Shown: in pieces, positions 13,016 to 24,216 of the stretch
Layout of the letters: the number at the start of each line of letters is the position of its first letter
Position numbering within the stretch: position 1 is the first letter of the stretch
IMG/VR virus record: IMGVR_UViG_3300042261_000652
Coordinates: 64,001 to 120,796 of that record
Strand: one strand, 5' to 3'
Source: a virus
Length of the DNA stretch: 56,796 nucleotides
Translations under genes and position numbers: made by a program
Notes under the pieces: generated by a model
Told to the model about the DNA's origin: nothing
The model's input: only the letters and a program-made list of their open reading frames with translations
Databases searched by the model: none

Positions 13016-14749
13016 ATGAATAACGAAAATAAAAAACTTTTGATGGAATGTATTACATTCGAAGCCGATCCACGGCTGCTTAAAGAATCTAGCGATCATC
13101 CAAATCAGCCATTCCGAGTGAGTGGAATTTTACAACGCAAAGGTAAAAAAAACCAAAATGGCCGTATTTACCCCGATGAAATTCTAATGCGTGAAGCTGA
13201 AAAATATTCAAACGTTTTCATAAAAGATAGACGGGCGATGGGTGAATTAGATCATCCGGAATGTAAAAGAGTTGGAACTGAGATACTTACGAAAGATGGA
13301 TGGAAAGATTTGCGTGATGTTAAAATCGGAGATATAATTCCGACGTTAAATACCACAACAGATACGTTGGAATATAATCCAATCGAACGAGTGATCAACG
13401 AACCATATAATGGTAAAATGATATCTATCATTGGAAAAAATATAGATACATTGGTTACTCCAAACCACAGATTTATTTTAAAAGATAGAAATGGAAAATT
13501 TCTGGAAAAAACCGCACGAGAAATGTTGGATATATCGAAAATAAATAAGAATCCACATTTATCAATTCCAGTTGTAGTTAATAATTGGAATGGATTTGCA
13601 TATGATGTATATAAAATAGATGCCATTCCAACAGAAGAAATATTAAAACACGCATCTTTAGAATTTGGAATTAAACAAACCACGACATTAAATTTAGATG
13701 CATCTGCATGGTTTTCATTTTTAGGATTTTATTTGGCCGAAGGACATTGTGATAATAGAGAAACTCAAAGCGGCTATGGAGTATACATCTCTCAAAACAA
13801 AGGAGAACTCGCCGATAAATTCCGAGAAATTCTATCACAATTAAGTCCAGAATTACAGTGGCACGAAAATGATAAGGGAGAAAACGCCATCATTTTTACG
13901 ACATATGATGCTCGTTTATGGACATATTTATCTAAATTGGGAAATCAATATACAAAATATATTCCCGATGATATAAAATTGGCATCTGTAGATTTACTTC
14001 AAAATTTATATGACTGGTATTTGAATGGAGATGGAACAGTTGTAGGAGAATATGATAGATCTTCCATATGTTCCGTATCCAAACAGTTAATGGAAGACTT
14101 TTACGAAGTAATATTAAAATTGGGAATGACCGGAGTTATTAAAGAACAAGTATCAAAGGATGATTATATGTTCGCCGGAAGATTAATAGAAATTAAAAAT
14201 AAAGTTCCATTGTATAGATTGTGGATTAAAACTGCGAAAGAGGTTTATCTAGATTTTCGATTTATAAAAATTGAAGAAGTCGATTACAATGATACCGTTC
14301 ATTGTGTGACTGTAAAGAACGGAACGTTTTATTGCCGGGATAGAAATAAAGCATTCTGGACTGGAAACTCCTCGGTGGTTAATTTAAAAAATGTCTCCCA
14401 CAATGTTATAGAAATGCATTGGCAGGGAGATGACTTGGTGGGCACAGTAGAAGTTCTCACAACTCCAAATGGAAATATTTTGCGGGAATTATTCAGAAAC
14501 GGAATTAAGTTGGGCATTTCAAGTCGTGGACTTGGAAGTTTAAAGAAAATTTCAGAAAGTTCGGCCATTGTGGGCGATGACTTTGAACTTATTGCGTTTG
14601 ATTTCGTTTCAAATCCCAGCACACAGGGGGCTTTTATGGCACCCCAAGGGCAAGTGGCATTATCAGAAGGCATTATAAAAAATCCAATGACTAATAAATG
14701 GGAACGCACTGACGATATCATTAGAAATATTCTCTCAGAATTGGGTTAA
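13016..14749 (+). CDS. Prohead protease (T4 gp21-like) interrupted by an intein
   Basis: 'GELDHPE' then insertion; extein resumes 'SSVVNLKNVSHNVIEMHWQGDDLVGT...GISSRGLGSL', matching recalled gp21 'GELNHP...MWWKGNDVYG...SSRGLGS'. Extein length is ~208 aa against 212 aa for gp21. Confidence 0.75.
   Translation: MNNENKKLLMECITFEADPRLLKESSDHPNQPFRVSGILQRKGKKNQNGRIYPDEILMREAEKYSNVFIKDRRAMGELDHPECKRVGTEILTKDGWKDLRDVKIGDIIPTLNTTTDTLEYNPIERVINEPYNGKMISIIGKNIDTLVTPNHRFILKDRNGKFLEKTAREMLDISKINKNPHLSIPVVVNNWNGFAYDVYKIDAIPTEEILKHASLEFGIKQTTTLNLDASAWFSFLGFYLAEGHCDNRETQSGYGVYISQNKGELADKFREILSQLSPELQWHENDKGENAIIFTTYDARLWTYLSKLGNQYTKYIPDDIKLASVDLLQNLYDWYLNGDGTVVGEYDRSSICSVSKQLMEDFYEVILKLGMTGVIKEQVSKDDYMFAGRLIEIKNKVPLYRLWIKTAKEVYLDFRFIKIEEVDYNDTVHCVTVKNGTFYCRDRNKAFWTGNSSVVNLKNVSHNVIEMHWQGDDLVGTVEVLTTPNGNILRELFRNGIKLGISSRGLGSLKKISESSAIVGDDFELIAFDFVSNPSTQGAFMAPQGQVALSEGIIKNPMTNKWERTDDIIRNILSELG
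13262..14368 (+). mobile_element. Intein with LAGLIDADG endonuclease domain inside the prohead protease
   Basis: Starts with Cys (tgt 13262) after 'DHPE'. LAGLIDADG motifs 'FLGFYLAEGHC' and 'LYDWYLNGDGT'; block F/G 'VHCVTVKNGTFYCRD...AFWTGN' followed by Ser. Confidence 0.6.
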
Positions 14750-14802: not shown

Positions 14803-16491
14803 ATGAATGATGCAATCATCAAATGGATAGCGGATAATTTGCAATATTTTCGTGGATTAATTTGCAAAAAATGCAAGCGAGAATGGTTTGAAAAGTATGG
14901 ATTCTTAGATAAATGGCAAGAAATACACGATATTACGTTATTTCTCGATGCATTAAATCCAACATTTCCTCAGCGAGTATGGCATATTGTCCATGATCAT
15001 TTGTCGACAATAAAATGCGCCAATCCTTCCTGTCAAAACTCTCCAAAATTCTGGTCTTTTAATATTGGATATTTGAGAACTTGTTCTACATCTTGTGCTC
15101 AATATGACCCACTTACTCAAGAAAAAATACAAATCACCAATCTCGATAAATATGGTTATAAATATGGGTTGCAGAATCCGGATATAATTAAGCGAAGAAT
15201 ATCTTCCATTCGAGAAAAATATGGCGTAAATAATATTTCACAAGTCGATGGCATATCGGAAAAGAAACAAGAAACGTGTTTAAAAAATTATGGAACGAAA
15301 TGGTTTTTGGAAAGAAGTGATATTGTTAGAGAATGTTTGGTGAGAAAGTACGGAGTAGAAAATGTTCAACAAGTTGACGAAATATCATCAAAAACATCTC
15401 AAACCAGAACAAATAATTTTTATGATGAATTAGTCGGGTCGGACAGATTTAAAGGAAAAGTAGTTCCATCATTTTCCAAGGAAGAATATGATGGAGTGGG
15501 AAAAGAATATAAATTTAAATGTACGTCGTGCTTTTCTGAATTCTCCTATGTTTTACGGTGGGACCGCATTCCGAGATGCCCCATTTGTTTCAAAGGATCA
15601 TCCATATTTGAACAAGAAATTACAAATTATATCAAAACGCTATTGCCTGCGACTGATATAATGGAAAATGTGAAGTCGATCTTATCCAACAATAGAGAGT
15701 TGGATATTTATATTCCATCTAAAAATTTGGCGATTGAGTGCAATGGATTATTTTGGCACGGGGAAGTTGGAGGAAATAAAAATAGAAATTATCATTTAAA
15801 TAAGACAATTGAATGTGAATCTAAAAATATCCATTTAATTCATATTTTCGAAGATGAGTGGATTTTGTCTCCGGATATTATTAAAAACAGATTGGCCCAC
15901 ATAATGGGATTACACAAAGTTGCCAAATCCATATATGCCAGAAATTGTGAAATAAAAGAAGTATCAAATAAAGATAAAAATAATTTTCTTAATGCCAATC
16001 ATATTCAAGGAACCGATAGAAGTAAAATACGATTGGGATTATTTTATAATAATGATATGGTCGCAGTTATGACATTTGGAAGTAGGCGAATATTTACCAA
16101 TTCTGTCTATATTGAAAATGAGTATGAACTTATACGATATGCCACTTCTATTCCAGTTGTGGGCGGAGGAAGTAAGCTGATGACGCATTTTATAAAAACA
16201 TATTCGCCAAAGAAAATTATCTCGTATGCGGATAGGCGATGGACTTATTATAAAAATAATTTATATGAGCGGATTGGGTTTAAAAAAGTATCAGATGGAA
16301 CACCCAACTATTGGTATTTTGGTCGTCAAGGAAATTATCGTAGATTTCATCGATTTGGATTTGCAAAACATACTTTATCTAAGCGATTGGCCTTTTTTGA
16401 TCCGAGTCTCACGGAATGGGAGAATATGAAAAATAATGGATGGGACAGGATTTGGGATTGTGGAAGTTTAAAGTATGAAATGGCATTTTAA
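14803..16491 (+). CDS. Zn-finger protein with KYGVxNxxQVD tandem repeats and a Vsr/DUF559-like PD-(D/E)xK endonuclease domain; candidate free-standing homing endonuclease
   Basis: 'CKKCKREW', 'CANPSCQN...CSTSC'. Repeats 'REKYGVNNISQVDGISEKK / LKNYGTKWFLERSD / VRKYGVENVQQVDEISSK'. Nuclease core 'ELDIYIPSKNLAIECNGLFWHGE' matches the Vsr/DUF559 pattern (VDF...AIEvDG.FWHg). Confidence 0.6.
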   Translation: MNDAIIKWIADNLQYFRGLICKKCKREWFEKYGFLDKWQEIHDITLFLDALNPTFPQRVWHIVHDHLSTIKCANPSCQNSPKFWSFNIGYLRTCSTSCAQYDPLTQEKIQITNLDKYGYKYGLQNPDIIKRRISSIREKYGVNNISQVDGISEKKQETCLKNYGTKWFLERSDIVRECLVRKYGVENVQQVDEISSKTSQTRTNNFYDELVGSDRFKGKVVPSFSKEEYDGVGKEYKFKCTSCFSEFSYVLRWDRIPRCPICFKGSSIFEQEITNYIKTLLPATDIMENVKSILSNNRELDIYIPSKNLAIECNGLFWHGEVGGNKNRNYHLNKTIECESKNIHLIHIFEDEWILSPDIIKNRLAHIMGLHKVAKSIYARNCEIKEVSNKDKNNFLNANHIQGTDRSKIRLGLFYNNDMVAVMTFGSRRIFTNSVYIENEYELIRYATSIPVVGGGSKLMTHFIKTYSPKKIISYADRRWTYYKNNLYERIGFKKVSDGTPNYWYFGRQGNYRRFHRFGFAKHTLSKRLAFFDPSLTEWENMKNNGWDRIWDCGSLKYEMAF

Positions 16492-17279: not shown

Positions 17280-17312
17280 AATCTTGCATATGATATTGTC
17301 ATATGCAAGATT
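17280..17312. promoter_or_regulatory. Perfect 14-bp inverted repeat (AATCTTGCATATGA-tattg-TCATATGCAAGATT) containing the 17303 start codon
   Basis: Arms 17280-17293 and 17299-17312 are exact reverse complements; the ATG at 17303-17305 lies inside the right arm. Confidence 0.5.
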
Positions 17313-18316
17313 GTTTGTTTTCTGATACCAAATTAAATTATGCCGACATCATTCTTCGGCATAATAAATCCGCCGTCTCCACGAGAAGTGATTGTGACAT
17401 ATCATTCAAACTCGGCGATAAAATTTATGCTGCGCCCGTATGTTGCAGCAATATGAAATCCATTTTAAATCGACATATTTGTAAAATATTCGATGATCGG
17501 AATTGGTTTTATGTTTATCATCGCATAGATGGTGTGCAAGACGTTGAGCGATTCGTATGGGACGCTAATTGTCGGGAATCGTCTATGTGGAAATATGGCG
17601 GAGTTATTGATAGAAAATTTAATACAATATCAATATCCGTTGGCGTTGGCGATGAATGGTGTGATTTAATCAGTCGGCTACATATTGAAGGATTGCGAGT
17701 TGATGCTATTACCGTTGACGTGGCGCTGTCTTACAATGATAATGTGATTCCCATCATAAATCGTATCAAAGAAAAATTTCCCAAGGCTTATTTAATTGTG
17801 GGAAATGGATGTATCAAAGAATGGATTAGTTGGTTGGAAGATTTGGGAGTTAATTGTGCAAAAATCGGAATTGGAGTTTCGAGTGCCTGTAGAACTCGGC
17901 AATATACGGGATTTGGATCAACTACGGTATCATCTTTGATTGAATGTGTAGAGGCTGCCAAGACGATTGATATTATGAGTGATGGTGGGTTGACTGTAGA
18001 CGCCAATGGAGAAGTTTGGATTGGAGATATTAATAAGAGTCTGGTTTTAGGAGCCGATATTGTTATGTCGGGCGCACTATTCAAAAACTGCATAGATTCT
18101 CCATCGATTATTGAGGGCTATTATGGTAATGCGTCAGAGCACGCCAAGCAAACAAAACGTCATATAGAAGGAACTAAACTGCATGTCGAAACGAACGGCT
18201 TGACTATTAGTCAAATGTGTGATTTAATAGAGGACAGTATCAAATCAGGAATTAGTTATAGCGGAGGGAACAAAATATCGGATTTGCGAAATTGTAGATA
18301 TGAAATCGTCCACTAA
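17303..18316 (+). CDS. IMP dehydrogenase / GMP reductase family protein (catalytic TIM-barrel core, no CBS domains seen)
   Basis: 'KIGIGVSSACRTRQYTGFG' aligns with IMPDH 'GIGPGSICTTR' (catalytic Cys loop); 'IMSDGGLTVDANGEVWIGDINKSLVLGADIVMSGALF' aligns with 'IIADGGI..GDI.KALA.GA..VM.GS'. Confidence 0.6.
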   Translation: MQDCLFSDTKLNYADIILRHNKSAVSTRSDCDISFKLGDKIYAAPVCCSNMKSILNRHICKIFDDRNWFYVYHRIDGVQDVERFVWDANCRESSMWKYGGVIDRKFNTISISVGVGDEWCDLISRLHIEGLRVDAITVDVALSYNDNVIPIINRIKEKFPKAYLIVGNGCIKEWISWLEDLGVNCAKIGIGVSSACRTRQYTGFGSTTVSSLIECVEAAKTIDIMSDGGLTVDANGEVWIGDINKSLVLGADIVMSGALFKNCIDSPSIIEGYYGNASEHAKQTKRHIEGTKLHVETNGLTISQMCDLIEDSIKSGISYSGGNKISDLRNCRYEIVH

Positions 18317-18528: not shown

Positions 18529-18801
18529 ATGAGCCGCTTTGAACATATTAAAGAACAATTGGCCGAACTCAACGGAGATGCATATCTATTCGACGGATTT
18601 GAAGAAGGTATGGTCGGGTATACTCAACAATACGGCAGAGCTCCCGTTGCGTGTTACGATTATGATGCGTGTATAAAAATATTAGTCGAACGAGACGATA
18701 TGTCCGAAGAAGAAGCAATAGAGTTTTTTGAATTCAACACGGTAGGATGTGGAGGGTTGGGAGCGAATACACCTGCCATATTGCGGCAAGTTAAGAGTTG
18801 A
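18529..18801 (+). CDS. Small hypothetical protein (90 aa)
   Basis: ORF with an acidic core; its stop codon overlaps the -35 box of the downstream promoter. Confidence 0.45.
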   Translation: MSRFEHIKEQLAELNGDAYLFDGFEEGMVGYTQQYGRAPVACYDYDACIKILVERDDMSEEEAIEFFEFNTVGCGGLGANTPAILRQVKS

Positions 18802-18825
18802 CAATTTTCTGTCGTTCGATATAAT
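18798..18825 (+). promoter_or_regulatory. Sigma70-type promoter: TTGACA-N16-TATAAT
   Basis: Exact -35 (18798-18803) and exact -10 (18820-18825) hexamers with a 16-nt spacer, 52 nt upstream of the 18878 ATG; the only consensus match noticed in the window. Confidence 0.5.
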
Positions 18826-18877: not shown

Positions 18878-19966
18878 TTGATTATGCTCAATGCAACGCT
18901 TGTAATAGAAGATGGGATTAAAAAGTTTAGGAGTAAAGACTACTCTTATAATTTTAGGATGTCCGATGGATATTTTCAGAGATGGGGAAAAACCACAAAT
19001 GATGATCCTCAGCAATCGCCAATGCCTGAGATTTTGGACATCGAAACTTCTATTGATGGCTGCCCCAAGGGCAAAGTTTCCGGACAAATTTGTACATTCT
19101 GTTACAAAGGAAATTCGGCAGGTAAGCCGTCATATATGACCTTTGAGACTTTCAAGGCGATTATAGACAAGTTTCCTAAAGTGAATGGTATTCACGCATT
19201 GACTCAAATGGCTGCGGGAATTACCAGTTTTAATGCCAATCCCGACATCTTCAAAATTTTCGAATATGCTCGGCAGCAAACCATTATTCCAAATTTAACA
19301 ATCTCCGGACGAGATACTTTGACCGATGAACAGATTGCTAAATTGGTATCTTTGATTGGGGCGTCGGCGTTTTCCATTTATAAGGAAGATAAGGATCAAT
19401 GTTATGATTTGATCAGTCGCTTTCTCAAGGCGGGTCTTAAGCAATGCAATATTCACTATATGATCAGCGAGGAAACGCTTCCATTCTTATACGAAATACT
19501 GGACGACATCAAGAAGGATAAACGACTCGCAGGTCTGAATGCAATTGTCTTTCTTGGCTTAAAGCCAAAGGGTCGTGGTAATACATATCATGTACTTCCA
19601 TATGAGGAATATGACAAGTTGGTGTCATTTTGTTTTGCTAACAATATTCCATTTGGATTTGATTCGTGCGGCTCTCCAAAGGTGGAAAAATCAGTCGCCG
19701 AAAGTCGGACATTATCTCCTGCTGCTAAAACCACAATTCTGCAAGCTTGCGAACGATGTGAATCCAATTGCCACAGCTATTATATCAACGTGAATGGAAT
19801 ATCATTTCCGTGTAGCTTTGCAGAGGATATTGAAGTTGGAACTGATATCTTAAAAATAAATGATTTCTTGACCGAGGCGTGGAATTCGCCAATTTCGGAG
19901 AAATGGAGAGATAGGTTGCACGGATTAAATCGGCAGTGCCCCTTATATCCTGAGATTAGATTATAA
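18878..19966 (+). CDS. Cys-rich hypothetical protein (362 aa); possible non-canonical radical-SAM/SPASM-like Fe-S protein (weak)
   Basis: 'CPKGKVSGQICTFCYKG' (C-x9-C-x2-C) near the N-terminus; C-terminal cluster 'CERCESNCHSYYINVNGISFPC'. Confidence 0.45.
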   Translation: MIMLNATLVIEDGIKKFRSKDYSYNFRMSDGYFQRWGKTTNDDPQQSPMPEILDIETSIDGCPKGKVSGQICTFCYKGNSAGKPSYMTFETFKAIIDKFPKVNGIHALTQMAAGITSFNANPDIFKIFEYARQQTIIPNLTISGRDTLTDEQIAKLVSLIGASAFSIYKEDKDQCYDLISRFLKAGLKQCNIHYMISEETLPFLYEILDDIKKDKRLAGLNAIVFLGLKPKGRGNTYHVLPYEEYDKLVSFCFANNIPFGFDSCGSPKVEKSVAESRTLSPAAKTTILQACERCESNCHSYYINVNGISFPCSFAEDIEVGTDILKINDFLTEAWNSPISEKWRDRLHGLNRQCPLYPEIRL

Positions 19967-19971
19967 TACAT

Positions 19972-20295
19972 ATGAAAATTAGAAACAAATTCGTCAGTAA
20001 TAGTTCATCAAGCTCATTCGTGGTGGTGGGAATTAAAATTTCGATGGATCGATTTGAGGAATTGGGCGGCGAAAAAGTATTTGAGAAATTGGCGAAATAT
20101 AGAGATTTCCCCGAAGGTGAGGATTGTGCTATTATTGGTACTCGGATTGGAACATGGGACGATACGAGTGGGATTATTGAGACTAAATCATTTGAGACAT
20201 TACAGGATGAGGCGAACAAGTTAAAGACAACTCTCTCGCCGCTGATGGGGAACGATGTTAAAATCGACATTATTTACGGAGCAACTTACGGATAA
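19972..20295 (+). CDS. MKIRN-leader family paralog 1 (107 aa)
   Basis: N-terminus 'MKIRNKFVSNSSSSSFVVVG'. Confidence 0.6.
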   Translation: MKIRNKFVSNSSSSSFVVVGIKISMDRFEELGGEKVFEKLAKYRDFPEGEDCAIIGTRIGTWDDTSGIIETKSFETLQDEANKLKTTLSPLMGNDVKIDIIYGATYG

Positions 20296-20300
20296 AGAGT

Positions 20301-20672
20301 ATGAAGACTAGAAATGGATTCGTAAGCAATAGCAGTTCATCATCGTTCTTAGTGGCTTTAAAAAAAATAGCACCGTGCAGCCATTGTGGGCGATCCGATC
20401 CCGATTTTTTTGACGTGGTGACTAGAATGGGAAATGATGGATGGGTTGAGGAAACAAAGTTGGAAGCTCGTGGTGTTAAGGAGTGTATAGATAAATACTT
20501 CGAATATTCTAAGGAAGATCAGGGGCCGTTGCGCAATAAATTGATGGCAATGGAGGCGGATGGATATGAAGTCGGGATAGTCGATATTGCATATCACGAC
20601 CAAATCACCGATGACATTTTTCAAAATTTAAAAAATAGTGGAGCACTCACGGTGTTAGAAACGATATATTAA
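20301..20672 (+). CDS. MKIRN-leader family paralog 2 (123 aa)
   Basis: N-terminus 'MKTRNGFVSNSSSSSFLVAL'; CSHCG motif. Confidence 0.6.
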   Translation: MKTRNGFVSNSSSSSFLVALKKIAPCSHCGRSDPDFFDVVTRMGNDGWVEETKLEARGVKECIDKYFEYSKEDQGPLRNKLMAMEADGYEVGIVDIAYHDQITDDIFQNLKNSGALTVLETIY

Positions 20673-20679
20673 TAAACAT

Positions 20680-21039
20680 ATGAAAATTAGAAATGGATTT
20701 GTATCAAATAGCAGCAGTTCTTCATTCATAGTAATGGGGTATCCAGTAACAGAGGATATATTTGCACAGTTGCAGGTGAAATTTCCAATGAAAGATGGAG
20801 AAAGGGTATTGGAATGGGAAGATCGGCTGCAAATGGAAATTGGATATCCTATTAGATTGTTATACGTAAAAGGTGCGACTCAGTATATTATAGGGACGGT
20901 TATTGCCAATGCCGATGGAAACTGTCTCGAATCTGTAACATATTCGATGGATCAACTTAAAGCCTTAGCTCAGCAAACTTCTGAAAAATTGGGTATTAGC
21001 GGTGAGTGTAAATTAATGATTGGAACTCGCCCCTGGTAA
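20680..21039 (+). CDS. MKIRN-leader family paralog 3 (119 aa)
   Basis: N-terminus 'MKIRNGFVSNSSSSSFIVMG'. Confidence 0.6.
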   Translation: MKIRNGFVSNSSSSSFIVMGYPVTEDIFAQLQVKFPMKDGERVLEWEDRLQMEIGYPIRLLYVKGATQYIIGTVIANADGNCLESVTYSMDQLKALAQQTSEKLGISGECKLMIGTRPW

Positions 21040-21049
21040 AACAAATATT

Positions 21050-21556
21050 ATGAAAATCCGAACGTGTTTTGTTAGTAATAGTAGTACTTCCAGTTGTATT
21101 TGCAATTTGTGCGGCAGAGAGGCAACTGGAATGGACATGTGCGCAGGTGATGCGGGTATGTTCGTATGTGTTAACGGACATACTATTTGTCAAGATGAAG
21201 CTGCGGAAAGCTTTGAGCAATGGATGGCAGAGAGCAATGAGTCGGAAGCCCTAGATGATGGTTATGGGAGCGGATATTATTATGACGTGCCTGAAAAATA
21301 TTGCCCATTCTGTCTTATGATTGAGTTTGCTCAGCCAGATCTAAAGCAGTATCTTAAAATTAAAACGAAGATTACTGAGGATGAGGCATTCGCTACAGTA
21401 AAAGCGGCAAATAAACGACGGAAAAAGCTTTACGACGCCGAGTATGTCATGTATACTTTGACCAAGACAGGCGAAAAGATGGAAAATTTGATTGCCGAGA
21501 TTAAAGCCAAATATACAACATATAAAGAATTTAGCAAATCGCTTTATGAAAATTAG
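21050..21556 (+). CDS. MKIRN-leader family paralog 4 (168 aa), Cys-rich
   Basis: Start re-set from track ORF 21020 to the internal ATG 21050 giving 'MKIRTCFVSNSSTSSC'; 'CNLCG...CAGD...CVNGHTIC'. Confidence 0.55.
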   Translation: MKIRTCFVSNSSTSSCICNLCGREATGMDMCAGDAGMFVCVNGHTICQDEAAESFEQWMAESNESEALDDGYGSGYYYDVPEKYCPFCLMIEFAQPDLKQYLKIKTKITEDEAFATVKAANKRRKKLYDAEYVMYTLTKTGEKMENLIAEIKAKYTTYKEFSKSLYEN

Positions 21557-21995
21557 AAATAAATTTGTCAGTAATAGCAGTAGTTCCAGCTTTATTGTAA
21601 TCGACTCGTGTGCCGATGAAACGGAAGTGGAAAGATTGCGCAATCTATATGGCAATAAGGAAATTTTAACCATAGGACCGACGTTTGGTTGTAATAAGTT
21701 TGGATGGGAGTATGGCGAATATTTCGATTTTGAGGATAAATTGATGTTTGCGCTATTGCAAGCGAAGTATGTTCGTGAAACATATCCCAAATGGATGATT
21801 ATGTTGCACGGAGTTTTGAAAAATGCGCTCAATGTGAAAGAAATACAATGGACTTGTGCAGATGAAGGATATATAGATCATCAATCTGCCAGTTATGAAG
21901 GAGAAAATACGGAGATGTTTATCTCCGAGGACAAATTAAGAAGTTTCTTATTTTCTAAACAATCGCATATTGAGACAGGAAATGATAACGAATGA
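21546..21995 (+). CDS. MKIRN-leader family paralog 5 (149 aa)
   Basis: Start re-set from track ORF 21492 to the ATG at 21546 giving 'MKIRNKFVSNSSSSSFIVID'; overlaps the previous gene by 11 nt. Confidence 0.55.
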   Translation: MKIRNKFVSNSSSSSFIVIDSCADETEVERLRNLYGNKEILTIGPTFGCNKFGWEYGEYFDFEDKLMFALLQAKYVRETYPKWMIMLHGVLKNALNVKEIQWTCADEGYIDHQSASYEGENTEMFISEDKLRSFLFSKQSHIETGNDNE

Positions 21996-22477
21996 AAATT
22001 CGAACCAATTTTGTAAGTAATAGTTCTTCCAGTTCTTTTATTGTAAATCGAAGACATGAGTATAATAAAGACCGGCCACTATTATTGTCGTCAGAGCAAG
22101 AGCAATTGTTAAAAGATAATGGATTTCGTTTGGGGATATGTTATTTTCCAAATCAAATTGCCAACGATGAAGTATTTGAGTTGCCATTGAGCGCCGATGA
22201 ACTTGCAATTGCAAATTGGTGCAAGTCGGTAACATGCAATCAAGACGATGAAATTGGATTTTTACTAAGACATAGAATATCATTTATGGCCGATGTTCAC
22301 TATGAGCATAGTAGTATGTTATATGACGGCACATCCGATGTCTTGCTTATAGCCGAAAATTTCGGAAAGCAGATGCAAATGGCGGGTGAGGGCAAAATAA
22401 ACTTTGATGTTGGAGCGAATCGAGCACCAATAACAAGAACGACGGGAAAACAATATTTGGAATTAAGACATTTATGA
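21992..22477 (+). CDS. MKIRN-leader family paralog 6 (161 aa)
   Basis: 'MKIRTNFVSNSSSSSFIVNR'; ATGA overlap with the previous gene. Confidence 0.6.
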   Translation: MKIRTNFVSNSSSSSFIVNRRHEYNKDRPLLLSSEQEQLLKDNGFRLGICYFPNQIANDEVFELPLSADELAIANWCKSVTCNQDDEIGFLLRHRISFMADVHYEHSSMLYDGTSDVLLIAENFGKQMQMAGEGKINFDVGANRAPITRTTGKQYLELRHL

Positions 22478-22782
22478 AAACACGATTAGGATTTGTTAGC
22501 AACAGTTCAAGCTCCAGCTTTTGTATTCTAGGAGTCAAGATTGACACCAATGCTGAAAAAATAATAAACAGCAATCACAGAACACTACCGTCAAGAATTA
22601 GAATTCAATATTCGATTTCACACAATGGTAGTAGATATGTTGGTATAGAAGCATTCCGCATATTGGATGATGAGACGCCCCGCCAGATTAAACAAGAACT
22701 TGTGGAGTCACTTCAAAGGGTCGGCGTTGAAATAAAAATGACCGAAATAGACTGGATAGAAGATGAAGGATATAACGGATGA
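22474..22782 (+). CDS. MKIRN-leader family paralog 7 (102 aa)
   Basis: 'MKTRLGFVSNSSSSSFCILG'; ATGA overlap. Confidence 0.6.
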   Translation: MKTRLGFVSNSSSSSFCILGVKIDTNAEKIINSNHRTLPSRIRIQYSISHNGSRYVGIEAFRILDDETPRQIKQELVESLQRVGVEIKMTEIDWIEDEGYNG

Positions 22783-23027
22783 AAATACGATCAGGATTTG
22801 TTAGTAATAGTTCGAGTTCCAGCTTTTGTGTTAATCTCAATATGATTTCAGCACGAGATGTGATGGTGCTTATGGATTATCATAAATTGGATAACCATGA
22901 TTGGTGGGATATAAGTGTACAATATGATCGTGGGTTAATCGTAGGTACAACAAATATGGATAATGGTGATCTCGATGAATATCTGAGTGCAAATGGTGTT
23001 AATACGGAATTATTTAATTGGTCATGA
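22779..23027 (+). CDS. MKIRN-leader family paralog 8 (82 aa)
   Basis: 'MKIRSGFVSNSSSSSFCVNL'; ATGA overlap. Confidence 0.6.
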   Translation: MKIRSGFVSNSSSSSFCVNLNMISARDVMVLMDYHKLDNHDWWDISVQYDRGLIVGTTNMDNGDLDEYLSANGVNTELFNWS

Positions 23028-23626
23028 AAACTAGAAATGGATTTGTCAGTAATAGTAGTTCATCATCGTTTATTGTGGCATTTGACGAAAAGCCACAAAA
23101 AGATGAATTGCTGAATATATTATATCCGGTAAATATGAAAATGGGCCGTCGACCATCTGTATCCCCAGATTGGGGCGATGGCTCGGTGGACGCACGTTCG
23201 GCGACTAAGATCATATATGATCAATTAAAAGATAAAAAGCCGCTTACCAAAAAACAGATATTGGAAGAAATTTCCGGGGGGTACTTTGAAGGGTATCCGC
23301 AAATTTCGCATTCGACGGAGGACGACCCGTCGTGGAAAATTGCGTCGGAATATACTGCCGCCACCGGAAAAAATATCCACGCATGTGATGCAGACCCAGC
23401 GTGGAGAAAACGCTACGAACAAGCAAACCAACAACATTGGGATGCTCAGCGAAAATTAGTAGATGACGCCGCCAAAGCGTACTTCGATAAAGTGTATTCT
23501 ACTAAGTTCAAGGGTAAAAAATGCTACGAGATTTCTTTTTCCGACAATGATGGAGATGTATTTGCCACCTTGGAACATGGGAATACATTTGACAATATTC
23601 CGCATATTAAAATAAGTCATCATTAG
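23024..23626 (+). CDS. MKIRN-leader family paralog 9 (200 aa)
   Basis: Start re-set from 23018 to the ATG at 23024 giving 'MKTRNGFVSNSSSSSFIVAF'; ATGA overlap. Confidence 0.6.
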   Translation: MKTRNGFVSNSSSSSFIVAFDEKPQKDELLNILYPVNMKMGRRPSVSPDWGDGSVDARSATKIIYDQLKDKKPLTKKQILEEISGGYFEGYPQISHSTEDDPSWKIASEYTAATGKNIHACDADPAWRKRYEQANQQHWDAQRKLVDDAAKAYFDKVYSTKFKGKKCYEISFSDNDGDVFATLEHGNTFDNIPHIKISHH

Positions 23627-23688: not shown

Positions 23689-24216
23689 TTGCCCCGCCGC
23701 TTCATTATAGAACGGGGGTGGGACTATTTTATGTGGTTAGAATGGGATTGCTATCTTGGTAAGGATAGATGGTATGACACGTTATGGGACGAACTGCAAG
23801 CGTGGCCTCACCAACCAATTCAAGCGGGAACTCCTGTAGTATCTCTCCAAGGATTGCACGGCAATTTTTTAGCCAATGTACAACATTATGTGGGAGAATT
23901 TATAAAAACGAATAAGGTTGCTATGTCATTTATATTAAACCGACCGTTTTTTCTAACTGTTAACGGCGCTATGGCATTTTATAATGTTGATAAAATGCAT
24001 CAATATTTTCAACTTCCCAATTATCAACCATTTAAATGTTTTGATATAACAGCGGGAATGCGAATATTCGATGAAGTTGGGGAAGATATACTAAAACGCA
24101 CGGCTTGGTTGCCATCTCTATATTCGGGATGGGGCGAAGAAACCTATACAGTAAACCAGCGATTAGAAATGGTAAATGCAGGCTATAAAGTAGCTATGCA
24201 TCAATATAAAGTTTAG
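23689..24216 (+). CDS. Hypothetical protein (Trp-rich N-terminus)
   Basis: ORF only; start uncertain because the track allows alternative start codons. Confidence 0.4.
   Translation: MPRRFIIERGWDYFMWLEWDCYLGKDRWYDTLWDELQAWPHQPIQAGTPVVSLQGLHGNFLANVQHYVGEFIKTNKVAMSFILNRPFFLTVNGAMAFYNVDKMHQYFQLPNYQPFKCFDITAGMRIFDEVGEDILKRTAWLPSLYSGWGEETYTVNQRLEMVNAGYKVAMHQYKV

Follow-up and report, generated by a model that had tools for sequence, protein, structure and literature searches.

Why should nine consecutive genes of a phage encode proteins that open with practically the same serine-rich peptide and then diverge beyond recognition? The question is raised by positions 19972-23626 of the stretch of viral DNA analysed here (56,796 nucleotides, positions 64,001 to 120,796 of the IMG/VR virus record IMGVR_UViG_3300042261_000652; hereafter the window). 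We present evidence that this peptide, referred to below as the tag, is conserved as a peptide, that the gene directly upstream of the array encodes a probable radical S-adenosylmethionine (SAM) enzyme, and that tagged genes and homologs of this enzyme are found together in viral loci whichever of the two is used as the seed. In our opinion, one enzyme may recognise the tag and modify it by radical chemistry on a whole repertoire of fast-evolving effector proteins; we consider the chances of this reading to be about even.

The tagged array

The components of the locus are as follows (aa, amino acids; nt, nucleotides; pI, isoelectric point; the body of a tagged protein is the part past about residue 20; L numbers denote related loci).

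18798-18825, plus strand: putative σ70-type promoter TTGACA-N16-TATAAT, a perfect consensus 58 nt 5′ of the ATG of the enzyme gene
18884-19966, plus strand: putative radical-SAM enzyme and candidate maturase of the tag, 360 aa; small β-sheet module at the N-terminus, predicted twitch/SPASM-like domain for auxiliary Fe-S binding at the C-terminus
19972-20295, plus strand: tagged protein 1, 107 aa; body pI 4.5; C-terminus ...IIYGATYG; body forms a singleton cluster
20301-20672, plus strand: tagged protein 2, 123 aa; CxxCGRSDP straight after the tag; body orthologs in L003/L004, L046, L039 and L001
20680-21039, plus strand: tagged protein 3, 119 aa; body orthologs in L001/L002 and L019
21050-21556, plus strand: tagged protein 4, 168 aa, 9 Cys; tag variant ...NSSTSSC; body cluster in 16 loci
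21546-21995, plus strand: tagged protein 5, 149 aa; true ATG at 21546; 11-nt overlap with gene 4; body orthologs in 8 loci
21992-22477, plus strand: tagged protein 6, 161 aa; ATGA overlap; body orthologs in 12 loci
22474-22782, plus strand: tagged protein 7, 102 aa; C-terminus ...EGYNG; ATGA overlap
22779-23027, plus strand: tagged protein 8, 82 aa; body pI 4.1; ATGA overlap
23024-23626, plus strand: tagged protein 9 (the canonical member), 200 aa; full-length match to phrog_7397

An earlier, sequence-only reading of this DNA described a tandem array of nine genes with a common N-terminus, tightly packed behind a consensus σ70-type promoter. All nine open reading frames (ORFs) are confirmed, and independent gene calls on two further public assemblies of the same phage, obtained in separate sequencing runs, give the same nine lengths. 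The packing is indeed tight, with no gap or overlap of more than 11 nt anywhere in the array and with 5 nt between the end of the enzyme gene and tagged gene 1. The count of overlaps has to be corrected from seven to five of the eight junctions (four ATGA overlaps and one of 11 nt), the other three being gaps of 5, 7 and 10 nt. The promoter had been placed 1 kb upstream of the array and called the only one of its kind; it is the sole perfect match in the window, but the intervening 1.1 kb is not empty. It holds the 360-aa radical-SAM gene, which that reading missed and which appears to belong to the same operon. Judged from gene order and spacing, the nine tagged genes are probably co-transcribed with the radical-SAM gene from this promoter, as one module. 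It should be noted that 0.09 perfect promoter matches are expected by chance in the window, that 9 of 100 shuffles also contain one, and that 5 of 74 related loci match all 12 of 12 promoter positions 5′ of the enzyme gene versus a background of 0.5%, which is a modest enrichment. Early transcription by the host RNA polymerase, as the sequence-only reading proposed, is more than this single consensus match can establish.

The first line of evidence bearing on the role of the tag is its conservation. The pattern MK[IT]RxxFVSNSS[ST]SS[FC] describes the start of all nine proteins; used as a regular expression, it matches these nine ORF starts only in the six frames of the 56.8-kb window, and 1.52 Mb of related loci contain no match to it on the opposite strand. 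Among 104 cluster representatives of tagged proteins, M1, R4, N10, S11 and S12 are invariant, and K2, G6, F7, V8, S9, S15 and F16 are at least 90% conserved. Thr is tolerated at positions 13 and 14, and positions 17-18 are Ile or Val. The motif begins at residue 7 in 308 of the 325 tagged ORFs of the tag-seeded loci (described below). Against 1.8-5.8 billion proteins, a tag-only profile reaches 40-67 bits and E values down to about 1e-13, and nearly all of its top 150 matches start at residue 1. At E <= 1e-3 it retrieves 24,357 representative proteins (50%-identity clusters), the weak end of which may include low-complexity false positives, and at E <= 1e-10 it retrieves 841. The word-indexed search with this profile returned only fragments of 28-74 aa and thus carries no information on protein size or domains.

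Looked for in related phage genomes, the same N-terminus recurs together with the enzyme in hundreds of large phages. The impression that it was unannotated is likewise correct: neither Pfam nor NCBIfam matches the tag or the bodies of the nine window proteins, and only PHROG 7397, a family of "unknown function", does so. Member 9 is matched by this family (phrog_7397) over its full length (E 3.5e-13). Members 1-3 and 5-8 align with no more than the initial ~20-36 positions of the profile (E 5e-5 to 7e-3), and there is no match for member 4. In entries P0324, P0325, P0327, P0328, P0331 and P0332 of public libraries, one full-length tagged protein is fused head to tail to another, and both have an MKxRxGFVSNSSSSSF of their own; either gene callers have read through a stop codon or the stop codon is recoded.

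Selection acts on the peptide and not on the DNA, because the Ser positions of the tag mix AGY and TCN codons between copies. Across the first 18 codons of the nine genes, nucleotide identity is 58% and third-position identity 43%, with amino acid identity at 67%, and the corresponding claim of the sequence-only reading is therefore borne out. These data bear directly on the view that the repeated 5′ ends are DNA or RNA elements, i.e., translation initiation regions or recombination sites for cassette shuffling, with no selected peptide. Such a view would accommodate the tight packing, the four ATGA overlaps and the mosaic relation of the bodies to the enzyme phylogeny. It has next to no chance of being right, since a switch between AGY and TCN needs at least two substitutions and the peptide is invariant across phages without alignable DNA; the codon data in effect refute it. 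Megablast of 8 kb of the window against GenBank gave no match, and neither did tblastn with members 4 and 6.

The predicted radical-SAM enzyme and its genomic linkage

The ORF at 18884-19966 is assigned to the radical-SAM enzymes on the basis of a three-Cys motif and a modelled partial TIM-barrel fold. The cluster motif of the window enzyme is C60-X9-C70-X2-C73; in most of 34 aligned homologs CX3CX2C stands at the same position, and among these C73 never varies and C70 is kept in at least 90%. Residues 60-73 (19061-19102) contain a 6-residue insertion in the window phage and its closest relatives, and model confidence is low there. The AlphaFold2 model as a whole has a predicted local distance difference test (pLDDT) score of 92.7 and places before the barrel a four-stranded β module (residues 5-34) that has no helices. 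When solved structures are searched with this model using Foldseek, SuiB comes first (E 1e-8, template modelling score 0.67), followed by SkfB and PqqE, and the top eight matches at E <= 1e-3 are to SuiB, SkfB, BlsE and PqqE. Lower matches include NifB, viperin, biotin synthase, HemN and lipoyl synthase, mixed with TIM-barrel proteins that are not radical-SAM enzymes. Comparison of the enzyme profile with the PDB points the same way (SkfB, E 1e-3; auxiliary region of BtrN, E 0.04).

Among family models, the strongest match is to phrog_7293 ("unknown function"; E 6e-74). The window enzyme scores 19.2 bits against the Pfam model PF04055, where the cut-off is 29.5, and 15.9 bits against the SPASM model, where it is 21.5. 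Many of its 566 database homologs pass PF04055, including many at 45-55% identity, and a few pass PF13186; several carry names of the AslB or PqqE/SkfB type assigned by the Joint Genome Institute (JGI). The NCBIfam matches are weak, sub-threshold and to unrelated radical-SAM/SPASM models (TIGR04317, TIGR04053 and NirJ1).

In the C-terminal part, C262, C292, C310 and C352 are invariant among the 34 homologs and no further auxiliary Cys is; C289 and C296, which flank C292, occur only in close relatives of the window enzyme. A full SPASM domain, with its seven to eight conserved Cys and two auxiliary clusters, is not what these 34 sequences contain. The auxiliary domain is better described as probably twitch-like, because four invariant Cys are enough for one auxiliary cluster.

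The second line of evidence is the linkage of the enzyme to tagged genes, which was assessed from both sides. The tag-seeded set comprised 72 viral loci on contigs of 10-550 kb (73 sequences were scanned, i.e., these loci and the window), and the enzyme-seeded set comprised the best 80 viral loci. Two or more tagged ORFs, with a maximum of nine, were present in 62 of the 73 tag-seeded sequences, and all tagged ORFs of a locus were on one strand. A homolog of the enzyme lay within 10 kb of the tags in 50 of the 72 tag-seeded loci, always on the same strand and at a median distance of 584 bp from the nearest tagged gene; the misses were mostly arrays cut by contig ends, or T4-like genomes. Conversely, 73 of the 80 enzyme-seeded loci had a tagged ORF within 10 kb and 61 had at least two (median 4, maximum 13), and every one of the 308 tagged ORFs in these loci shared the strand of the enzyme gene. 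A conserved third gene, such as a protease, exporter, chaperone, or a secretion or packaging gene, was looked for in the loci and not found.

The same association is seen among 50,697 phage records of GenBank, where the canonical tagged protein occurs in 175 and the enzyme in 172, with an identical genus breakdown. The carriers are T4-like phages of the RB16/KP15/GAP161 type that infect Klebsiella, Enterobacter, Cronobacter, Citrobacter and Escherichia. A minimal version of the system, with one enzyme and two tagged proteins, is found in Escherichia coli phage RB16 and in KP15/GAP161-group phages; in Vibrio phage D479 the enzyme gene has five tagged genes upstream. A cellular origin was considered and discarded: only 14 loci were found in 185,579 species genomes, mostly on contigs of metagenome-assembled genomes, and at least two of them (L158 and L160) are contigs that are also in IMG/VR. 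The only isolate genome of that species collection with a canonical tagged protein is that of Flagellimonas marina CGMCC 1.15774 (L156; NZ_JBHSCL010000010.1, 178 kb). The protein could come from a prophage or from a co-sequenced phage, and would then point to a culturable marine host.

The tagged proteins and the function of the tag

Pooled over all loci, 619 tagged ORFs (412 unique) encode proteins of 61-279 aa, with a median of 135 aa. The sequence-only reading called the members of the array diversifying paralogs, a description that lacks support on two counts. First, common descent of the bodies is not demonstrated, there being no detectable homology beyond about residue 20: BLAST groups the bodies into 110 clusters, of which 80 are singletons, and hhalign, applied after removal of the tag to the 13 largest clusters of the 72 loci obtained first, gave a best probability of 22%, shallow alignments limiting its sensitivity. 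Paralogy throughout is not supported on this basis. Second, the array is probably not a recent duplication, because most window members have orthologs in other phages. Thus, the nine window bodies belong to nine different clusters, and eight of these are roughly one-per-phage orthologous groups present in 3-58 loci.

Comparison of individual loci suggests that the bodies evolve faster than the enzyme and are assorted mosaically. The L001 enzyme is 47% identical to that of the window, and L001 has counterparts of seven of the nine bodies in near-collinear order, with bodies 4-6 at 44-57% identity (56% for tagged protein 4). The L003 enzyme is 81% identical, and the L003 bodies just 29-51%.

The bodies are small and acidic, as one would expect of early phage effectors: the median pI is 4.55, the median net charge is -10, and 95% are net negative. 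Pfam finds no domain in the 104 cluster representatives except one Zn-ribbon. The last residue is Gly in 18% and His in 18%, compared with backgrounds of 6% and 2%, respectively. The acidity, fast evolution and mutual unrelatedness of the bodies, together with the consensus promoter, would fit early host-directed effectors. Two subfamilies contain conserved Cys motifs. Residues ~21-33 of tagged protein 2 (20361-20400) read APCSHCGRSDPDF, and CxxCGR(S/G/K)DP is conserved in this body subfamily, in the equivalent genes elsewhere; the Cys-rich subfamily of member 4 has the common motif SGWDASPS[DE]F...C. Both motifs may be small metal-binding knuckles.

Structural evidence on the tag comes from the canonical class, which is the most widespread of all, being found in 27 of 73 enzyme-seeded loci and in exactly one copy in 56 of the 73 tag-seeded sequences. 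It is the only class that also keeps its C-terminus (SDNDG...LEHG...xSHH-COOH, with ISHH in the window), in which D174, E184 and the final H200 are invariant. In the AlphaFold2 model of member 9 (pLDDT 93.5), residues 1-6 are disordered, residues 7-12 are non-regular, and residues 13-20 form a core β-strand that lies alongside strands 166-173 and 194-198. The fold has no match in the PDB or BFVD. The model suggests that the exposed invariant part of the tag spans roughly M1-S12. The tag is thus not a simple detachable leader, because residues 13-20 form a core β-strand in this model.

This model also supports a different reading, in which the tag would be the first β-strand and a Ser/Asn-rich loop of one ancient small domain, the rest of which has diverged beyond recognition. 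The loop would be an intrinsic binding or catalytic site, acting in the canonical member with the C-terminal D, E and H, and the radical-SAM enzyme would be only a pathway neighbour, for example the maker of a ligand or a participant in the same host process. The confident core strand, the retention of both termini by the canonical member, the conserved hydrophobic positions 17-18 and the C-terminal endings shared by some subfamilies are all in its favour. We regard it as unlikely in each of these parts. The profile-profile comparison of bodies gave nothing, and D/E/H are kept by the canonical class only; moreover, this reading leaves unexplained why M1, K2, R4 and G6 are invariant within the disordered first six residues and why the motif is pinned to the exact N-terminus, and it treats the same-strand adjacency to one enzyme family as coincidence.

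Co-encoded targets with a common motif are the established signature by which radical-SAM maturases with SPASM or twitch domains are paired with their targets (PMC10114670). A two-component module of maturase and tag is, in our opinion, the most economical reading of the locus, which has this same genomic signature. The enzyme, with a radical-SAM barrel and at least one predicted auxiliary Fe-S cluster and structurally nearest to the maturases SuiB, SkfB and PqqE, would recognise the N-terminal MKxRxGFVSNSS(S/T)(S/T)SF on every co-encoded protein. A radical-mediated modification would then be installed in F7-S12, which is exposed and invariant, probably while the protein folds or earlier. One candidate reaction is hydrogen abstraction from Cβ of Ser or Asn leading to oxidation, with abstraction from Ser known from the anaerobic sulfatase-maturating enzyme anSME (PMC10114670); another is a cross-link from an aromatic ring to Cβ, for example Phe7-Ser9, as in triceptides (PMC11499958). 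The working parts would be the bodies, which vary, are acidic and bear no relation to one another; they would probably bind different host targets early in infection, and all of them would depend on the same modified N-terminal arm. The gene anatomy, the tag, the enzyme class and the two-way linkage are shown by the data above, and from there on the role of the tag as substrate, the chemistry, the timing of expression and the action of the bodies on the host are inferred. Of the three roles that the sequence-only reading suggested for a recognition tag, namely modification, proteolysis and sorting, it is modification that the evidence favours.

Several observations weigh against this proposal. 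The enzyme scores below the curated cut-offs of Pfam and NCBIfam, matches no characterised maturase family, and shows no RiPP recognition element (RRE, a PqqD-like wHTH in or beside the maturase; RiPP, a peptide made by the ribosome and modified after translation) in the Pfam and NCBIfam searches. In the canonical model the tag is, as it appears, partly structural and not a free leader. Seven of the 80 enzyme-seeded loci lack a tagged gene within 10 kb, and L061 and L067/L072 have seven tagged genes and no enzyme within that distance. In RB16-type genomes, the tagged genes RB16p106 and RB16p111 are about 20 kb from the enzyme gene RB16p156, and co-occurrence inside the T4-like clade is phylogenetically non-independent. 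Finally, modification of the tag in any protein is deduced from genomic linkage, not from direct evidence, and the co-occurrence fits docking or a shared pathway equally well.

Docking is the essence of another explanation, in which the unmodified tag would be an adapter for the radical-SAM enzyme, for example by β-augmentation of its N-terminal four-stranded module, and the bodies would bring the enzyme to differing host proteins or nucleic acids, its real substrates. The logic would resemble that of F-box proteins and their shared ligase. The co-occurrence data suit this arrangement as well as they suit tag modification; the extra β-sheet module at residues 5-34 of the enzyme and the predicted β-strand in the second half of the tag could provide the contact, and diverse acidic bodies are consistent with many binding targets. 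The nearest structural relatives of the enzyme, however, modify the co-encoded peptide itself (PMC10114670). Moreover, the member 9 model has the β-strand part of the tag packed inside the sheet of the tagged protein itself, which would leave it unavailable for docking. To our knowledge, there is no precedent for radical-SAM enzymes with interchangeable targeting subunits, and we consider an adapter role improbable, as we do the F-box-like logic that goes with it.

The position of the tag at the extreme N-terminus invites yet another comparison, with sorting or turnover signals. The tag could direct packaging into the capsid for injection, export or cleavage in the manner of a prepilin (MKxRxG|F), or degradation as an N-terminal degron; it opens with a short basic stretch ending in Gly-Phe, and residues 1-6 lack order in the member 9 model. 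Among the internal proteins of phage T4 and among pilins, small and diverse proteins are known to come in arrays with a common N-terminal signal. The T4 capsid-targeting sequence is an N-terminal signal of ~10 aa that ends in a prohead-protease site, L/I-x-E, at which it is removed, and the T4 internal proteins resemble the tagged proteins in being tandem, fast-evolving, small phage proteins that share only a short N-terminal peptide. Unlike the tagged proteins, they have no radical-SAM partner, and the tagged proteins are not annotated as virion components; those of the RB16 group are hypothetical, not structural, in GenBank. Residues 1-18 of the nine window proteins contain no Glu, nor do residues 1-16 of the consensus, which excludes L/I-x-E from the tag, and no pilin-type hydrophobic segment follows the Gly-Phe. 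Since, in addition, the loci lack any conserved gene for proteolysis, secretion or packaging and the link to the radical-SAM enzyme would go unexplained, we regard a sorting or turnover signal as very unlikely. The lack of the required hydrophobic segment also led us to reject a prepilin leader as such. Two further ideas were set aside: a glycyl-radical motif, RVxG[FWY], for which both the spacing and the class of activase are wrong, and an N-S-S glycosylation sequon, for which there is no glycosyltransferase partner.

Known systems, neighbouring genes and significance

If the tag is the substrate of the enzyme, the closest counterparts are RiPP systems. The streptide pair SuiB/SuiA and the pairs SkfB/SkfA and PqqE/PqqA provide the best structural matches; their enzymes, like the phage enzyme, combine a radical-SAM barrel with a C-terminal auxiliary Fe-S domain, and, as in the phage loci, the gene of a RiPP maturase lies beside genes that share a motif. 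There are, however, clear differences. The putative phage substrates are proteins of 61-279 aa with unrelated bodies, not short peptides, and do not have the organisation of a RiPP precursor, i.e., a short peptide made up of a core and a leader that is removed: their median length is 135 aa, and member 9 is predicted to fold confidently. The conserved part is at the exact N-terminus and, in the member 9 model, partly forms a core β-strand; the loci have neither a leader protease nor an exporter as a conserved gene, and nothing suggests that a leader is removed. In contrast to RiPP maturases, the phage enzyme has no RRE recognisable by Pfam or NCBIfam and only four conserved auxiliary Cys. Lastly, the phage system is restricted to phages and has up to 13 putative substrates per locus.

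Whole-protein substrates are known for anSME, a radical-SAM enzyme with a SPASM domain that modifies a Ser (or Cys) of its target by abstraction of a hydrogen from Cβ before folding, which yields a functional residue (PMC10114670). The likeness to anSME, AtsB and AslB lies in the Ser-rich tag and in the label "AslB" given by JGI to several homologs of the enzyme. Nevertheless, neither the tag nor any of the nine window sequences contains the sulfatase motif (C/S)-x-P-x-R, and no sulfatase domain was found in the 104 cluster representatives. Furthermore, anSME has two auxiliary clusters, is outside the top fold matches of the phage enzyme, and gives no NCBIfam match to it.

In triceptides (Ω1-X2-X3), radical-SAM enzymes link an aromatic ring to Cβ two positions on, and Phe motifs are known substrates (PMC11499958). 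The F7-V8-S9 of the tag, at least 90% conserved, has this form, but a three-residue pattern is weak evidence by itself; a triceptide precursor, unlike a tagged protein, is a short peptide in which the motif is usually repeated within a C-terminal core, and the phage enzyme matches none of the cyclophane-synthase models of NCBIfam. A further parallel is that of the prochlorosins, where one enzyme, ProcM, acts on many co-evolving substrates with a conserved N-terminal region and a hypervariable remainder. That system differs in being cyanobacterial and in relying on a lanthionine synthetase, peptide substrates and a cleaved leader.

Thus, the phage module would work like a RiPP or anSME system but belongs to neither. 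It is of a known kind in that a radical-SAM maturase is co-encoded with motif-bearing targets; the restriction to phages, the whole-protein targets tagged at the exact N-terminus, the very large repertoire and the unrelated bodies are new. The motif string is absent from the 8 million papers searched for it, and literature searches on radical SAM combined with phages, SPASM, RB16 and KP15 gave no description of the enzyme-tag pairing.

Some neighbouring genes deserve mention. A GMP-reductase/IMPDH-like gene (17303-18316, plus strand) lies two genes 5′ of the radical-SAM gene; it matches NCBIfam PRK05458 at E 7e-62, under the curated cut-off, and Pfam IMPDH in public gene calls. We rejected it as a component of the module, since just some 10 of 72 loci have a homolog of it near an array. 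A terminator scan picked out a hairpin of 33 nt (17280-17312; 15-bp stem) that overlaps the region of the start codon of this gene, which suggests a regulatory or recombination element. Farther upstream, a 577-aa ORF (13016-14749, plus strand), which matches a head-maturation-protease PHROG in its C-terminal part and, weakly, a thymidylate-synthase PHROG near the N-terminus, is followed by the gene of a 562-aa homing endonuclease (DUF7487; 14803-16491, plus strand). Past the array, the final same-strand gene (23689-24216, plus strand; 161-175 aa depending on the choice of start) has no tag, no family match and no homolog among the related loci, and convergent minus-strand genes start at 24213. 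An ORF of ~330 aa at 10621-11790 of L001, the start of which (DVDVKG...) looks nucleotidyltransferase-like by eye only, has homologs beside tagged arrays in 11 tag-seeded loci and is absent from the window.

In its widest form, our proposal is that large phages have an unrecognised radical-SAM system operating at the level of whole proteins. A universal 16-residue handle at the N-terminus of ~24,000 clusters of unrelated, acidic and rapidly turning-over effectors, up to 13 per genome, would either be modified by the enzyme, through cross-linking or Ser oxidation, or recruit it, and the activity of the effectors against host targets would depend on that handle; we rate this as possible, at somewhat less than an even chance. 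If true, a large and so far unannotated family of phage proteins (~24,000 clusters) would be matured by one radical enzyme, by a new radical-SAM reaction with a compact and portable 16-residue recognition tag. Chemistry of the RiPP type would be extended from peptides to whole proteins, and into phage-host conflict, with a new substrate class for RiPP-type maturases and a new class of enzyme-dependent phage effectors. The module is directly testable in the culturable E. coli phage RB16 and in widely used phages of Klebsiella, Enterobacter and Cronobacter, and it would provide the first functional handle on a recurrent block of early phage genes now annotated as hypothetical.

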